Shown: one piece after another, positions 1,007 through 22,973 of the stretch | Layout of the letters: the number at the start of each line of letters is the position of its first letter | How positions within the stretch are numbered: the stretch's first letter is position 1 | Source: a bacterium | GTDB taxonomy: Bacteria > Patescibacteriota > Dojkabacteria > JAOAGR01 > JBAXGO01 | DNA length: 64,000 nt | Assembly: GCA_037139335.1 (NCBI GenBank) | Contig: JBAXGO010000002.1 | Span: forward strand, 851-64,850 | Reading direction: 5' to 3' | Program-made: the position numbers and the translations under genes | Notes under the pieces: model-generated | Databases searched by the model: none | The model's input: only the letters and a program-made list of their open reading frames with translations | Told to the model about the DNA's origin: nothing

Positions 1007-3329
1007 GTTGTTGAGATTCGATAAATTCTTCCTTCTTATCATGTGTTTCCTGAGGACGAGTACTACATAATTTATATTCTTGATCGCTAGCTTTAATTTC
1101 TATAGCTACATGGTTATTGTCGGCAAAGAAAAGCCCCATTCCGACACCCGCACCAAGAAGTAAACTTTTTTCTCCATCAGAAAGATAAAATACCTTTTGT
1201 AATTTATCAATTGCTGTAGGATGTTGTTTCAGAAGTACTTGAATAGAAGAATTTGTAACAACTGCAACACCAATATCTGACTGCAAAAAGTCTTCAACAT
1301 TTTGAGAAATTACAGTAAGTCCTAAATAATATTTTCTAGCTCTTTTGGCAATAGAGTTAATAAATAAAGCACTTTCTGGATATCTCATTAGAAGCCATGC
1401 TTCATCAACAATTAGTATTCTTTTTCGAGGCTCTCTTTTCACCTTATTCCATATGAAATCCATCATAAAGTACATCGCCAATGGTTTGAGCTCATCAGAA
1501 AGATCTCGGATACTAAATACGGTAAAGGGATTATTAAGATCTACATTAGTTTTCTTGTCAAAAATTCCAGATGCAGAACCTATGATAAATTTTTCTAATC
1601 TATCAGCAAGTCCCAAAGCTTCTGGCTCAATCATTGCTTTGAAAACTTTGTATAAATCCTCCATTCTAGGAGCCTCTAATTTATGTGTTGCAGGATTATT
1701 TGTAATTCCTTTCTCAAAATATGCCTGACGAATAGCTCTTTCTAATATCGCCATTTCTGAATTGGTCATTTGACCAAAAGCAAGTTTGAAAAATCCAATC
1801 AATGATAATTCTTTAAGTTTCAGCTCGTCCTCATTACTATCCATAATTCCAGATAATTCAAATGGATTTACTTTATTTGAACCATCTTGAGAAAATGAAA
1901 TAAAAGCTCCACCAATAGATCTAGCTAATCCTTGATACTCATTTTCAGGATCAATAACAATGACTTCTGTACCAAGCATCAAACTTCTAATAGCTTCAAG
2001 TTTAACCATAAAACTTTTACCAGCACCCGAAGTTGCAAATACAACCATATTTGCATTCGGCATTGCAAAACGATCAAAAATTACTAATGACCTGTTATAT
2101 GTATTGATACCATACATTATTCCTTTGTCCATTGATAAATCTGAAGATGTAAATGGAAAAGTATTAGCAATTGATGTAGTATCCATATTCCTTACTTTGA
2201 AAAGCTTATCTACACCAACAGGGATAGAGGATTGAAAAGCTTTTTCCATAGCAAGTGATGACGTTTTTGCTGATATTTCTTTAGATGCTAATATAGATAG
2301 AAGGGCTTGTGTCATATTATTTAATTCTTTGACACTATCTGCTTTCATAGTTATATACAAAGCAAAGTTAAACCATTTTTCTATTCCAGAAGCTAATAAT
2401 TCTTGTTGTCGTATAGCATCTTGAAGTGAAACTTTGATATAGGCATCAGGAACACGACCTCTTTCCAAATCTAAATTTAAACTTGCTTCAAATTCTGAAA
2501 TTTTTTGTCTTAATTTTTTAACAATTTCACCAGAATTAATTGGATAATAAAACATACTTATATCCAATGCTTCTTCGTAATTTACAATTTGCTCAAGCAT
2601 TCCTGGATTAGAGAATTTATAATCAATTGCGAAAATAGTTCGAATAAATTTATTTCCAATTCTCATTTCATTAAAATCGACTTCAATAGCTGATGGTGCA
2701 ATGAAATCTTGTACACTAATAGATCCTTCATCAACAATAGAAAAATCATCATCTTGACCTGTTGTTGAGTTATTTGTTTTAAATATTTTATCTCCTAAAC
2801 CAAATGGAATAACACCAGCTAAAATTTCTTTCATAACCGAGTTTTTTCCACCCGATGACTTATTAGATTTTGATTCCTCTGGTGTTGAAATTTTATTCAT
2901 AGGAACCATATGATTCCTATTCGTATATACTTTGTCTGGCATTTGATTCTGAGCTGGTAAGTTCTGAACCATTCTTGTATTTGAAGCCATACCCGGTCTA
3001 GGTATTTGATTATTTTGATTTTGAACAGGAGCTTGCTGAATTGGCCTCTGATATGTAGGCATGTTATTTGGCAAAGGCTGATTATATGTTTCTGAAGGTT
3101 GATTCGAATAAACATTTTGATTAACCTGATTCAATGGCGCATAATTTTGTTGCTGTGGAATATTTTGTCCTGAATTATATGCTGAAGAATTGTAAGTGCT
3201 TGGATCAGCTTGTTCAAAAGGTCCAGAAGAATTTGTATTTCTAGATCCAGGATTAAAAGCTCCTACTGGATTAGGTAAAACCGAAGACGGGTTATCGTTT
3301 TTATTTTTTGTTTTATCAAATAATCCCAT
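972..3329 (-). CDS. VirB4/TrbE/CagE-family (type IV secretion/conjugation) ATPase with Q/N/P-rich low-complexity N-terminal extension
   Basis: 785 aa. Walker A FATSGAGKSF, Walker B RILIVDEAW and VirB4-type C-terminal motifs (GLTVISQNVEDF, YLSDGEKSLLLGAG) are present. The first ~170-200 residues are a Q/N/P/S-rich low-complexity region with no stop codons despite the AT-rich genome. Confidence 0.75.
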   Translation of the reverse strand: MGLFDKTKNKNDNPSSVLPNPVGAFNPGSRNTNSSGPFEQADPSTYNSSAYNSGQNIPQQQNYAPLNQVNQNVYSNQPSETYNQPLPNNMPTYQRPIQQAPVQNQNNQIPRPGMASNTRMVQNLPAQNQMPDKVYTNRNHMVPMNKISTPEESKSNKSSGGKNSVMKEILAGVIPFGLGDKIFKTNNSTTGQDDDFSIVDEGSISVQDFIAPSAIEVDFNEMRIGNKFIRTIFAIDYKFSNPGMLEQIVNYEEALDISMFYYPINSGEIVKKLRQKISEFEASLNLDLERGRVPDAYIKVSLQDAIRQQELLASGIEKWFNFALYITMKADSVKELNNMTQALLSILASKEISAKTSSLAMEKAFQSSIPVGVDKLFKVRNMDTTSIANTFPFTSSDLSMDKGIMYGINTYNRSLVIFDRFAMPNANMVVFATSGAGKSFMVKLEAIRSLMLGTEVIVIDPENEYQGLARSIGGAFISFSQDGSNKVNPFELSGIMDSNEDELKLKELSLIGFFKLAFGQMTNSEMAILERAIRQAYFEKGITNNPATHKLEAPRMEDLYKVFKAMIEPEALGLADRLEKFIIGSASGIFDKKTNVDLNNPFTVFSIRDLSDELKPLAMYFMMDFIWNKVKREPRKRILIVDEAWLLMRYPESALFINSIAKRARKYYLGLTVISQNVEDFLQSDIGVAVVTNSSIQVLLKQHPTAIDKLQKVFYLSDGEKSLLLGAGVGMGLFFADNNHVAIEIKASDQEYKLCSTRPQETHDKKEEFIESQQPTQRAIPNSLI

Positions 3330-3345
3330 CTGGCAGTAAATTAGT

Positions 3346-3843
3346 TTATTTCTTTGTAACCGAAACTATAATCTTTGCAGTCTTTATTATATTACCATTC
3401 ATTTCATATGCTGGCGAGAGAACAGTCAGTATTTTATTATCTTCACCATTTTCTTGAGTAGCTACAACTTCAGCTAGGTTAGGATCATAATTCTCCCCAA
3501 TTTTTAATTCAACACGTCGAACTCCTTCTGTTGCTATTAAAATATCTAACTGCTGAAGAATATTATTTAGAATTTGAACATGTTCATCTTCTCCTTCATG
3601 ATTTTCAATAACTACATTATAAGTATCAATAATATTTATAATTTTTAATATTATCGATATCTTACCTTTTTGTTTATCCAAATCAACATTTCTTCTAACA
3701 TTCACCAACTCTGCTAATACTCTAATATATGAATCTTGAATTTTGTTATATTCTTCTTCAGTATATGTTTTTTCTTCTTTTTGCAAAACTTCTTCAGAGC
3801 CTTCAATATTTTCAATATCTATATTTTGTTTATCATCCGACAT
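3346..3843 (-). CDS. grpE: GrpE nucleotide-exchange factor homolog (orphan, no dnaK adjacent)
   Basis: 165 aa. Aligns by eye to GrpE: [21 protein letters not shown] matches [29 protein letters not shown] matches DPNVHQAI; C-terminal [20 protein letters not shown] matches [20 protein letters not shown]. Stop lies 16 nt upstream of the VirB4-like start. Confidence 0.7.
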   Translation of the reverse strand: [165 protein letters not shown]

Positions 3844-11259: not shown

Positions 11260-11532
11260 ATGGAAGAAAACAGATCAAGATTATTTGTAGGTGGTGTCGC
11301 ATGGGCATCAACAGAAGATTCACTTCGTGACGCATTCTCAGCAGCAGGTACAGTAGTATCCGTTAGAATCATCAAAGATAAAAGAACCGGTAAATCAAAA
11401 GGTTACGCATTTGTAGAAATGTCAACACCTGACGAAGCACAAAAGGCAATTGAACTCTTTAATGGTCAACAGATTGACGGCAGAGTAGTTACAGTAAATG
11501 TAGCTAGACCAATGGAACAAAGAAGTTTCTAA
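11260..11532 (+). CDS. RRM-type RNA-binding protein
   Basis: 90 aa. RNP2 LFVGGV and RNP1 KGYAFVEM are present. Confidence 0.85.
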   Translation: MEENRSRLFVGGVAWASTEDSLRDAFSAAGTVVSVRIIKDKRTGKSKGYAFVEMSTPDEAQKAIELFNGQQIDGRVVTVNVARPMEQRSF

Positions 11533-11551
11533 ACCTCAAATCAAAAATTAA

Positions 11552-11579
11552 AAAGGAGCTGAAAGGCTCCTTTTTTTTT
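11552..11579 (+). terminator. Intrinsic terminator after the RRM gene
   Basis: GGAGC-TGAAAG-GCTCC hairpin followed by T9. Confidence 0.7.
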
Positions 11580-11609
11580 CGTTGTTTTTTTCCGATTCTT
11601 AGAAGTAAA

Positions 11610-12345
11610 GTTAAAAATTTGTCACCCTGAGTACTTCGGCAAGCTCAGTATATGCTTTATTGAAAGGAATTCCCCCTAATGTCATTCCTGCGAAAGCAGG
11701 AATCCATGTAATCTCTTATCACTTTCTATGTCATGCCGCACTTCCTTTCTATGTCATCCCGAATGAAATGAGGGATCTCGTCGGATTAAAGCTTAGCAAC
11801 ATATCGTCTTATTAATTAACGAGATTTCTCACTAACGTTCGAAATGACATAGATCTTCGAAGAGCACACCACAGGCTCATCCCCTTAATCTGTCATTCCT
11901 GCGAAAGCAGGAATCCATGCATTCTTGTTGTCACCCTGAGCTTGTCGAAGGGAGACTGTCGGAAAATTTCAAAACAAAGAACGGAATGAACACACCCCGC
12001 CTCTTCTTTCGCTAAAGCTACAGAAGACAAGTTCGGCACCCCTCTTCCCAGAGGGGAATTTTAAAAATGAAACAAAAAAATATGTCACCCTGAGCTTGTC
12101 GAAGGGCGACTGTAGGATTTTTTCCCTCCTTACCGAGGAGGAAACCAAGGGGGGCAAACCCCTAAACTGACCTCACTGCCTCGCTTTGCTCAGCACCTCT
12201 CCTTTCGAAGGAGAGGATTGGGGAATGAATACAATAACCTCTCTTTCCCGCAAGCGGGACATCTCCCCTTTTGTAAAAGGAGAGAATAATAAGAGCTCAC
12301 CACAGAATCCTCCAACGGTAAGGGATTTTTAGAAGACAAGTTAGG
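11610..12345. repeat. GC-enriched ORF-free island of related short hairpin/direct repeats (REP/MITE-like or structured RNA)
   Basis: A 28-mer GTCATTCCTGCGAAAGCAGGAATCCATG (8-bp stem plus GAAA loop) occurs identically at 11681-11708 and 11892-11919. GTCACCCTGAGCTTGTCGAAGGG(A/C)GACTGT occurs at 11930 and 12084, with a variant at 11622. AGAAGACAAGTT(C/A)GGCA occurs at 12022 and 12331. Multiple further GC hairpins are present. Confidence 0.5.
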
Positions 12346-12586
12346 CAACCTTCTTTACAACCATAGATTTAATAAAATGTACTATTTGTAAAAGTACTAA
12401 TGGGAAAAGTATAACTGCATTGATGAATCCAGCGATAAAGACAAGATATAAGTATTCATCACCATTACAGAATTCCGAACATATAGGTCTATTAACACTA
12501 ATAATGGAAAAAACAATAATCAAAACGATAAGTGTGAACGTTAGAATTATAGTTAAAATATTTATAACTTTATCAATTTTTTTCAT
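12341..12586 (-). CDS. Small two-TM membrane protein
   Basis: 81 aa with two hydrophobic helices. Confidence 0.4.
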   Translation of the reverse strand: MKKIDKVINILTIILTFTLIVLIIVFSIISVNRPICSEFCNGDEYLYLVFIAGFINAVILFPLVLLQIVHFIKSMVVKKVA

Positions 12587-21483: not shown

Positions 21484-21536
21484 ACTTTTGTTAATTATAA
21501 AGAAGTAATAAATTTAAACCTAATCAACTTATTAAA

Positions 21537-21598
21537 CTTACTTAACTTACTTAACCTACTTAACCTACTTAACCTACTTAACCTACTTAACCTACACC
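21537..21598. repeat. Tandem 9-bp repeat (CYTACTTAA x ~6.7) between the serS leader terminator and the serS start
   Basis: The sequence reads cttacttaa cttacttaa cctacttaa cctacttaa cctacttaa cctacttaa cctacacc. Confidence 0.85.
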
Positions 21599-21614: not shown

Positions 21615-22973
21615 ATGTTAGATCCAAAATTTATAAGAGAAAATCCAGAACAAATAAAAACAATTGTTAAAAATAAAGGAACAAATCCAGAAAAAGCAAA
21701 TGTTGAAAAATGGCTTGAACTAGATAAAACTAGAACTGACTTATCAAACCAACTTGAAGAGGCTAACAGAAGAAGAAATGAGATAGCCAAACAATTATCT
21801 GGTGGAAATATTACTGATGATTTAAAAGAAGAAGGAAAAGCATTAAAACAAAAAGAACAGGAATTAAGAAATAAACTTACTGAAGTTGAAAACGAATGGA
21901 ATGAAATTGCAGCATGGTTTCCAAATGTTCCTTTTGACGATATAAAAGTCGGAAAAGACGATACGGAAAATCCTGAAATATTTGCATGGAGACCAGATAC
22001 TGGTGAGATTGATAAAAATAAACTTGGTGAAAATATGGATTCAGCTAAATATATGCCTGATAACCTACTTTATGCTGATAAAGAATTTACACCAAAACAT
22101 CATATCGATATACTGGAAGATTTAGGAATGGCCGATGTGGCACAAGGTGCAAAAATTGCAGGGACTAGATTCGTTTATCTAATGGGCGATATAGTAAGAC
22201 TTCAAAAAGCTGTTCATGCCTATATAATGAACCATTTGTATACAAAAGATTTTACTCCAGTTAATCCACCTTTGTTGGTTAAAGAAAAAGTTCTTTTTGG
22301 TACAAGTCATTTTCCTGAAGGAAGAGATCAAGTATATGAAATAAAAAATGAATTTCTTGAAGATAAAGATTCATTATTTTTAGTTGGAAGCAGTGAACCT
22401 TCAAATTTTGCTTATGGAATTGATAGAGTTTTTAAAGAAGAAGATTTACCATTAAAAATGGTTGCTATAACTCCGTGTTTTAGATCTGAAGTAGGAAGCT
22501 GGGGCAAAGATGTTCGCGGAATAAAAAGAGTTCACCAATTCGATAAATTAGAAATGGATATAATTTGCACTCAAGACCAGAGCAGCGATATTTATAATGA
22601 ATTATTGAATGTTAATCACTGGATATTACAAAGTTTAAAACTACCATACCATATTGTAGAAAAATGTACTGGAGATAGTGGTTATGCTGCTTCAGCTAGA
22701 CAAGCAGATCCAGAAGTATGGTTGCCTGGGCAAAAAACTTTTATGGAAGTAGGTACTGATACAAATGCTACTGATTTTCAAGCTAGAAGAATGAACATGA
22801 AATATATTGATAAAGATGGTAATAGAAAATTATGCCATACGGTAAACGATACAGGTGTTTCTGACAGAATATTGATTGCTATCATTGAAAATTATCAACA
22901 AAGTGACGGCTCTGTGCTCGTTCCTGAAGTACTAATTCCATTCATGGGAAAAGATAGAATAGTAAAGAAATAA
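21615..22973 (+). CDS. serS: Seryl-tRNA synthetase
   Basis: 452 aa. N-terminal MLDPKFIRENPE coiled-coil arm and class II aaRS core motifs are present. Confidence 0.9.
   Translation: MLDPKFIRENPEQIKTIVKNKGTNPEKANVEKWLELDKTRTDLSNQLEEANRRRNEIAKQLSGGNITDDLKEEGKALKQKEQELRNKLTEVENEWNEIAAWFPNVPFDDIKVGKDDTENPEIFAWRPDTGEIDKNKLGENMDSAKYMPDNLLYADKEFTPKHHIDILEDLGMADVAQGAKIAGTRFVYLMGDIVRLQKAVHAYIMNHLYTKDFTPVNPPLLVKEKVLFGTSHFPEGRDQVYEIKNEFLEDKDSLFLVGSSEPSNFAYGIDRVFKEEDLPLKMVAITPCFRSEVGSWGKDVRGIKRVHQFDKLEMDIICTQDQSSDIYNELLNVNHWILQSLKLPYHIVEKCTGDSGYAASARQADPEVWLPGQKTFMEVGTDTNATDFQARRMNMKYIDKDGNRKLCHTVNDTGVSDRILIAIIENYQQSDGSVLVPEVLIPFMGKDRIVKK

Follow-up and report, generated by a model that had tools for sequence, protein, structure and literature searches.

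We examined a GC-rich spacer, at positions 11581-12345, in a stretch of 64,000 nucleotides from an uncultivated bacterium of the Dojkabacteria lineage (contig JBAXGO010000002.1, positions 851 to 64,850; the whole stretch is referred to here as the window). This spacer, which we call the island, is probably a mosaic of short (~30 nt), oriented hairpin DNA repeats that lies between convergent genes and is related to the motifs of the GIY-YIG nuclease Ssn. We observed directly what the elements are by sequence, that they accompany GIY-YIG genes in other genomes, that their stems covary, that the one syntenic relative lacks the island, and that strains differ by a rearrangement; the existence and action of an Ssn enzyme in this organism, the way in which the elements spread, and any consequence for the host are inferred. 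Elements of this kind have been known since 2025, and their dRS3 palindrome for far longer, and the island would be a further member in an unusual host of 30% GC. A sequence-only reading of the window had suggested an accumulation of elements resembling repetitive extragenic palindromes (REPs) or miniature inverted-repeat transposable elements (MITEs), for example IS200/IS605-type ends without their transposase. This suggestion was right in kind, in that the island consists of hairpin elements without a mobilizing gene, but an IS200/IS605 partner is not supported.

Ssn-related motifs (SRMs) and the nuclease SsnA were described by Chenal et al. in 2025 (PMC11893778). The palindrome dRS3 (ATTCCC-N8-GGGAAT) is present in hundreds of copies in intergenic mosaic arrays of Neisseria, where about half of the copies fall within a longer oriented motif, NTS. 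SsnA is a single-domain GIY-YIG nuclease of 94 amino acids (aa) that binds and cuts NTS only as single-stranded DNA, with a cleavage site a few nucleotides upstream of the hairpin. The GTC located 5' of the palindrome governs cleavage, and the C located 3' of it is most critical for binding. The Neisseria NTS/SsnA system restricts transformation by NTS-bearing DNA, and looser SRMs flank ssn homologs across many phyla. Ssn was equated with CDD family cd10448 (all from PMC11893778).

Class A repeats resemble NTS and adjoin GIY-YIG genes in other genomes

The 29-nt class A unit, TGTCATTCCTGCGAAAGCAGGAATCCATG, is present in two identical plus-strand copies, A1 (11680-11708) and A2 (11891-11919), which correspond to the hairpin with a GAAA loop that the sequence-only reading had recognized as an exact pair. 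The unit is NTS-like and has the form TGTC-ATTCCTGC-GAAA-GCAGGAAT-CCATG, with an 8-bp stem. Its 25-mer core was found twice in the window (0.00 expected), both times in the island. Folded as DNA, A1 reached -8.5 kcal/mol (z -5.7) and A2 reached -7.8 kcal/mol (z -3.3). Comparison with the published NTS (CGTCATTCCCGCGMAVGCGGGAATCYRG) revealed equality at 24 of 28 positions, with the GTC head and the 3' C kept, and two of the four differences constitute one compensatory change of a stem pair from C:G to T:A. The published patterns that we applied were NTS with at most 1 mismatch and the SRM expression HGTCWYN(0-2)YYVSBRHN(0-5)WNVSBRGN(0-2)RNCYNB. When the latter was loosened to 2 mismatches, it gave 17 matches, compared with 14.4 in shuffles, and missed obvious copies. 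Because it performed no better than shuffles, we instead scanned by structure, looking for GTCA and then a Y-closed hairpin; 6 of the 14 window matches fell in the island, which makes up 1.2% of the window.

The exact class A 25-mer was found at at least 120 loci in GTDB species-representative genomes. The matches listed include several Rickettsia genomes, Flavobacteriia, Nitrospirota, Dehalococcoidia, Planctomycetota, and Thermodesulfobacteriota, together with two Patescibacteria metagenome-assembled genomes (MAGs) and MAGs of Nanoarchaeota and Bathyarchaeum. The archaeal matches, an exact 25-mer at 1559-1583 of locus L005 and one at L099, are on contigs binned as Nanoarchaeota and Bathyarchaeum, and they reflect either an element that crosses domains or misbinned contigs. 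Only the unit of about 30 nt is common to the class A loci, and their flanks are unrelated.

Four of the listed class A loci, each 8 kb in length, contain a GIY-YIG gene of about 100 aa (PF01541, E 1e-14 to 1e-19), and class A abuts the gene in three of them. At L106 (Hyphomicrobiales), inverted class A copies are located 2 nt before and 8 nt after a stop-to-stop GIY-YIG open reading frame (ORF), and at L089 (Winogradskyella) a copy is found 25 nt downstream of the gene. At L092, on the Thermodesulfobacteriota chromosome OZ245366.1 (4676-6237), the gene is embedded in a hairpin array of ~1.5 kb. Two hairpin types alternate in orientation ~56 nt apart in this array, with loops TGCGRAAGCA on the plus strand and GTGCYTGACAC on the minus strand, giving a superstructure like that of bacterial interspersed mosaic elements (BIMEs). 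Around the ~240 listed copies of classes A and C, GIY-YIG was the only recurrent small-nuclease or mobile-type family, and the other recurrent families were abundant housekeeping or signaling families. All-against-all clustering of ORFs from the ~1.7 Mb around these copies revealed no recurrent transposase, though no Y1 profile was run.

REP elements of REP/RAYT systems, in which RAYT is an IS200/IS605-like Y1 transposase, carry a 5' GTAG head. The conserved head of the island elements is GTCA, and it is GIY-YIG genes, not recurrent transposases, that inverted copies directly adjoin. These differences make mobilization of REP/BIME elements by a RAYT very unlikely as an explanation for the island, despite the resemblance of short extragenic palindromes with a conserved 5' tetranucleotide that cluster in mixed orientations, an analogy drawn in the description of SRMs itself (PMC11893778).

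Class B and C hairpins covary, and class C flanks GIY-YIG genes in inverted orientation

The GTCA units other than class A, assigned here to classes B and C, form one continuum with the form TGTC-A-Y-NNN-GA-NN-nnn-NN-GA-N'N'N'-R-T-C, and the island contains about six of them, full or truncated. The three classes follow one layout, in which 5'-(T)GTC precedes a palindrome with A as its first base and T as its last, and a C comes next; C1 and C2 depart from it at the 3' end. The TGTCA(Y) head is present in A1, A2, B1, B2, C1, and C2, and the C directly 3' of the palindrome is present in A1 and A2 (GGAAT-C), B1 (GGGAT-C), and B2 (GAAAT-C).

Covariation was analyzed in 95 distinct B/C copies from all fetched loci, which were anchored only on TGTCAY and the two GA dinucleotides, with no requirement for pairing. 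The four outer pairs covary, as seen in CCCT/AGGG, TGCT/AGCA, TCCT/AGGA, TGGT/ACCA, TTCT/AGAA, and TTTC/GAAA. In total, 76% of cells were paired and 103 cells had changed on both sides, and the covariation score of 0.433 exceeded that of shuffled copies (0.179; 0 of 500 reached the observed value) and that of every slid control. Of the inner pairs, 12-18 covaries too, and 13-17 is mostly unpaired (C.T). The invariant GA...GA may extend the stem as tandem G.A pairs.

The exact class C 23-mer was found in 13 contigs of a viral collection and in metagenome contigs, of which there were at least 120. No report of this sequence was found in the literature library searched. At L176, one of these contigs, plus-strand class C copies are located upstream of a GIY-YIG gene and a minus-strand copy begins 2 nt past its stop codon. 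Four homologs of this gene (at L278-286, L287, L288, and L289/290) all have inverted class C flanks. The layout is therefore the same at five gene loci, with a plus copy within ~80 nt upstream and a minus copy that overlaps the stop or follows it by at most ~30 nt. The L176 protein is 42% identical to the class A-linked GIY-YIG protein of L089 and matches the solved UPF0213 GIY-YIG proteins 1zg2 and 1ywl; a literature search for GIY-YIG with UPF0213 found nothing. It is possible, though we hold this only tentatively, that B and C are hairpin types outside the published SRM definition, each with its own GIY-YIG clade, and that "hairpin > GIY-YIG < hairpin" units are autonomous mobile units resembling insertion sequences. 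Their gene-less derivatives, such as B1/B2 at 11748-11853, would then have dispersed among phyla of bacteria and archaea, reduced genomes of the Patescibacteria type among them, and would still be turning over between strains. What may be new relative to the literature is the hairpin type of classes B and C, together with its regular inverted position on either side of GIY-YIG genes.

Near a seed copy (within 500 nt), the fetched loci held extra GTCA-Y hairpins at ~3 times the density found farther away, and clustering is thus a general feature of these elements. By a crude test, 44 to 55% of seed copies were inside ORFs, with an ORF mask that covered 90% of bases, which is only suggestive of a preference for intergenic DNA. 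Most of the homologs P0121-P0240 of the L176 protein are encoded by genes of ~100 aa on contigs shorter than 2 kb, and several products are 110 to 150 aa long, which suggested that the flanking repeats interrupt assembly and that gene prediction runs on into these repeats. In L085, a GC-rich Patescibacteria MAG, a single gene of ordinary appearance at 2780-3457 is located between class C-like hairpin clusters at 2521-2691 and 3480-3669, an arrangement that matches the "repeat-gene-repeat" layout reported around Neisseria surface-protein genes. A scan of the viral contigs with CCTCTCCTTTCGAAGGAGAGG gave 0 matches. A scan with AGAAGACAAGTTMGGCA gave 12, which we discarded as close to chance by a rough estimate from its 16 specified bases.

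The island differs between relatives and between strains

The only syntenic relative, L136, encodes a CobW that is 65% identical and an RNA recognition motif (RRM) protein that is 78% identical to those beside the island. The two genes are convergent and 27 nt apart in L136, with neither the island nor the 81-aa ORF found beside it in the window. The comparison of synteny was limited to L136, as the ORF beside cobW in L137 is not the RRM gene and gene order differs in L139/L140. L001, which was assembled independently from what is essentially the same strain, is 99.65% identical over 11.6 kb. It matches the window from 12400 back to 11961 and diverges fully beyond that point. The two sequences part past the 3' end of C1 in the window and, in L001, past that of a complete class B copy, which is preceded by nested partial heads (TGTCACCCT-AA-TGTCATTCCTG-TGTCATTCCTGCTAAAG...). 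The internal order of 11581-11960 is that of the window assembly alone. Besides the window assembly, there are two assemblies of the same organism, and these break or diverge within the island, which hints at further copies or variants. In the more distant L139/L140 (CobW 54% identical), an A-like copy and an inverted B-like copy are present at another intergenic locus, which gives this broad lineage a second island, independent of the first. This region of L139 (3212-3610) is a 400-nt spacer with GC-rich filler between an HMA/DsbD_2 gene and tsaD; its A-like copy is TGTCATTCCCGTGAAGACTGGAATCC, and its inverted B-like copy has a long loop.

The absence of the island from a syntenic relative and its difference in a 99.6%-identical strain argue for mobile repeats rather than a conserved RNA. 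A large structured noncoding RNA, which had been suggested from the sequence, or an RNA element in the 3' untranslated region of the RRM gene would agree with the position directly downstream of that gene and with the folding of the region, which is well below that of shuffles (z -6.6). Folding is just as good on the opposite strand (z -6.2), as expected of palindromic DNA. A search of Rfam 15 returned 0 matches at the gathering score, and a permissive run returned only subthreshold noise. Furthermore, a strong terminator stands between the RRM gene and the island, and SsnA shows no binding to NTS in RNA form (PMC11893778). We therefore consider such an RNA highly improbable.

A second suggestion made from the sequence, an array of sites bound by a nucleoid protein or by the neighboring RRM protein, would account for repeated short palindromes in noncoding DNA beside an RNA-binding protein gene, as would a degenerate CRISPR. 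We give almost no credence to either. The RRM ortholog of L136 exists without an island, and the same units are found beside unrelated genes in many phyla. The spacing is irregular, both orientations and three unit types are present, some copies are truncated, and Tandem Repeats Finder reported no tandem array within the island; the sequence-only reading was correct to reject a CRISPR array.

Composition and inventory of the island

The GC enrichment and the lack of genes that had been noted in the island were both borne out. The GC content of 11581-12345, 0.438, exceeds that of every other 765-nt stretch in the window (z = 5.4); the others average 0.296 +/- 0.026, with a maximum of 0.369. Only five ORFs overlap the island, all of them 48 to 62 aa long and composed of repeats, and none is a credible gene; two that were searched against Pfam had no match. 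A scan of the window for tRNAs and tmRNA found none.

In the left part of the island, a truncated class C copy at 11620-11631 (plus strand) consists of the 5' half only and is an exact copy of the 12-mer TGTCACCCTGAG, which was found three times in the 64 kb (0.09 expected), always in the island. Next to it, at 11634-11648, the minus strand carries part of a class C copy in inverted orientation (CTTCGGCAAGCTCAG; reverse complement, CTGAGCTTGcCGAAG), which is 93% complementary to 11936-11950 and 12090-12104. Together with the half copy before it, this part forms a CTGAG/CTCAG hairpin. The three GTCACCCTGAG copies that had been listed are all present, but only two have the 3' half GGG(A/C)GAC, the first being this 5' half at 11620 joined to the inverted partial copy. 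These two are C1 (11929-11960, plus), with the form TGTC-ACCCT-GAGCTTGTCGA-AGGGa-GACTGTC, and C2 (12083-12114, plus; found with the 12-mer and the structural scan), with the form TGTC-ACCCT-GAGCTTGTCGA-AGGGc-GACTGTA.

Class B begins with a truncated copy, TGTCATGCCGCAC, at 11729-11741 (plus), of which strain L001 holds the full version TGTCATGCCGCTTAGGAGCATCTCGTT. The structural scan identified B1 at 11748-11784 (plus; TCTA-TGTC-ATCCC-GAATGAAATGA-GGGAT-CTCGTCGG), which has family members with covarying stems, and B2 at 11820-11853 (minus), whose reverse complement is TCTA-TGTC-ATTTC-GAACGTTAGTGA-GAAAT-CTCG and which has a 29-nt match in the Winogradskyella locus L089. B1 and the inverted B2 enclose 35 nt and thus reproduce the "hairpin > gene < hairpin" layout without a gene. 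The GTCATGCCGCAC variant of the sequence-only reading is a truncated copy, and B2 on the minus strand is one further full copy to be added to those of that reading.

The other hairpins of the sequence-only reading are present as it described them. The GC hairpins of the island include CCCCTCT-TCCC-AGAGGGG at 12036-12060 (fold z -3.4), CCTCCT-TACCG-AGGAGG at 12124-12142 (z -2.1), CCTCTCCTT-TCG-AAGGAGAGG at 12196-12216 (z -3.8; 0 exact matches in viral contigs), and TCTCCCCTTTT-GT-AAAAGGAGAGA at 12261-12284, identified by folding. These four have no relatives in the loci (1.7 Mb) or viral contigs searched, and the last three are left unassigned. A degenerate class C-like core without the GTCA head is found at 12179-12193 on the minus strand (reverse complement CTGAGCAAAGCGAGG), where it may be likened to the L081 copy TGTCATTCTGAGCAAAGCGAAGAATCT. 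The sole island match of the published SRM pattern at 1 mismatch is a decayed NTS-like core at 12240-12262 (plus), TCCCGC-AA-GCGGGA followed by C, with CTCTT instead of the 5' GTCAT.

A repeat search identified two direct repeats on the plus strand, D5 (11860-11882 and 12291-12313) and D4 (12022-12046 and 12331-12355; AGAAGACAAGTTAGGCAACCTTCTT). The second copy of D4 is located at the right edge of the island and overlaps the stop of the 81-aa ORF. The distance from D5 to D4 is 162 nt in the first copy and 40 nt in the second. A2 and C1 are located within the longer interval, which suggests that D4 and D5 could mark an older backbone duplication that later received A2 and C1 as insertions. The direct repeats AGAAGACAAGTT(C/A)GGCA, described earlier as about 310 bp apart, are indeed separated by 309 nt.

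On its left, the island is bordered by the RRM-protein gene (11260-11532; Pfam RRM_1, E 2e-22), with a strong terminator hairpin at 11550-11575 between the gene and the island. On its right, it is bordered by the 3' end of the 81-aa ORF (12341-12586, minus strand) and then cobW, also on the minus strand, so that the island occupies the spacer between convergent gene ends. The best named relatives of the window CobW are from Patescibacteria and Pacearchaeota (35 to 37% identity). The 81-aa ORF encodes a hydrophobic product with no Pfam match. Since L136 lacks this ORF and has only the 27-nt gap between cobW and the RRM gene, the ORF may have arrived with the island or been created beside it. 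Inside the island, the minus strand at 11980-12001 has a hairpin and T-run resembling a terminator (GGCGGGGTGTGTTCATTCCGTT followed by CTTTGTTTTG), which could end read-through from the side of the 81-aa ORF and cobW. Elsewhere in the window, the 9-nt unit AACCTACTT is repeated in tandem 8.8 times (91% matches) at 21517-21595, an intergenic site just upstream of a seryl-tRNA synthetase gene that starts at 21615.

Are the elements active or orphaned?

Several observations weigh against an Ssn-related mosaic. No GIY-YIG gene or remnant was found in the 64-kb window, either with two hidden Markov models built from the hits of this analysis or by tblastn with a GIY-YIG consensus (nothing below E 0.1 in each case), and the elements are present at one locus only in these 64 kb. 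The strict SRM pattern had 0 matches in the window, because class A carries the compensatory stem pair. C1 and C2 lack T-C after the palindrome and have AGGG(A/C)-GAC instead, whereas class C copies outside the island can end in AGGGT-C. Folded alone, the class B and C hairpins are thermodynamically weak (z about 0), which makes covariation the main evidence that the hairpin matters. Among the loci listed, only 4 of 120 for class A and 1 of 120 for class C have a GIY-YIG gene. The link to GIY-YIG therefore draws on the tight adjacency at these loci and on the four gene-anchored loci, for a total of about eight independent loci. Finally, the right third of the island (12115-12345) is made up of GC hairpins with no relatives in the fetched loci (~1.7 Mb) or viral contigs, and it is assigned to the mosaic only by its context.

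The lack of a GIY-YIG gene in the window makes an orphan or fossil state the main alternative. According to this explanation, the repeats were acquired by horizontal transfer or past activity and are inert DNA, tolerated between convergent gene ends in a genome that has lost, or never had, a cognate Ssn. Their confinement to a single locus of the window and the truncated or decayed state of the copies at 11620, 11729, 12179, and 12240 are consistent with it, and about 19% of the genomes holding over 200 SRM copies yielded no SsnA homolog (PMC11893778). However, A1, A2, and copies from distant phyla are identical over the 25-mer in a host of 30% GC, which argues for recent arrival or selection. 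In addition, a near-identical strain is already arranged differently, and a related lineage has A-like and B-like copies at another locus. We therefore regard inert repeats as unlikely, though a serious competitor, and favor an Ssn-related mosaic.

If the island is such a mosaic, it would have built up in a dispensable spacer between convergent gene ends, where insertions do little harm. Each element could fold when the DNA becomes single stranded during replication, recombination, or uptake, and would then offer a site that a cognate GIY-YIG nuclease of the Ssn type could recognize in trans. The elements might spread with, or by way of, "hairpin > ssn < hairpin" units, and solo or paired copies without the gene might persist in the manner of MITEs. 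New copies that land beside or inside old ones would create truncated and nested copies and a local excess of GC.

A puzzling GC-rich spacer of a low-GC, uncultivated bacterium thus gains a name and a likely protein partner. One hairpin is identical in Rickettsia, Flavobacteriia, Patescibacteria, and archaeal MAGs, for which a conserved protein reader or frequent transfer is the only ready explanation. In practical terms, such islands break metagenome assemblies, yield spurious small ORFs (e.g., "...VIPAKAGIH..."), and can be mistaken for CRISPR arrays or noncoding RNAs. The hairpins of classes B and C, with their inverted arrangement about GIY-YIG genes, offer a lead toward a wider Ssn recognition repertoire, which is of interest as a source of site-specific tools for cutting single-stranded DNA, and the inverted layout bears on whether GIY-YIG nuclease genes are themselves mobile.

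Comparison with known systems

The closest counterpart is the NTS/SRM and SsnA system. Class A shares with it the 5' GTC, the ATTCC...GGAAT palindrome, and the 3' C; the elements are likewise oriented, extragenic, and clustered; and identical copies are found beside GIY-YIG genes of ~100 aa in other genomes. In contrast, the compensatory T:A pair causes class A copies to fail the published NTS and SRM patterns, and classes B and C have a short covarying stem with a possible tandem G.A extension and a triloop. There is also no ssn gene in the 64-kb window, and the elements are in an uncultivated bacterium of 30% GC, not in Neisseria, Wolbachia, or Rickettsia.

The dRS3 arrays of Neisseria are similar in that they are intergenic mosaics of short palindromes and other repeat blocks beside ordinary genes, with the palindrome core ATTCC-N-GGAAT. 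They differ in that Neisseria has hundreds of arrays, compared with one small island here, and in the mixture of repeat classes in the island. REP/BIME elements and their RAYTs share short extragenic palindromes with a conserved 5' tetranucleotide, hairpin recognition in single-stranded DNA, and clusters that alternate in orientation, often with inverted copies around the mobilizing gene. They are distinguished from the island elements by GTAG in place of GTCA and by a Y1 transposase in place of a GIY-YIG nuclease, the latter not being known to drive transposition. Like MITEs and the palindromic elements of Rickettsia, the island elements are nonautonomous, multicopy, and structure forming, and the class A 25-mer is itself present in several Rickettsia genomes; unlike them, the island units are only ~30 nt long and have no target-site duplications.

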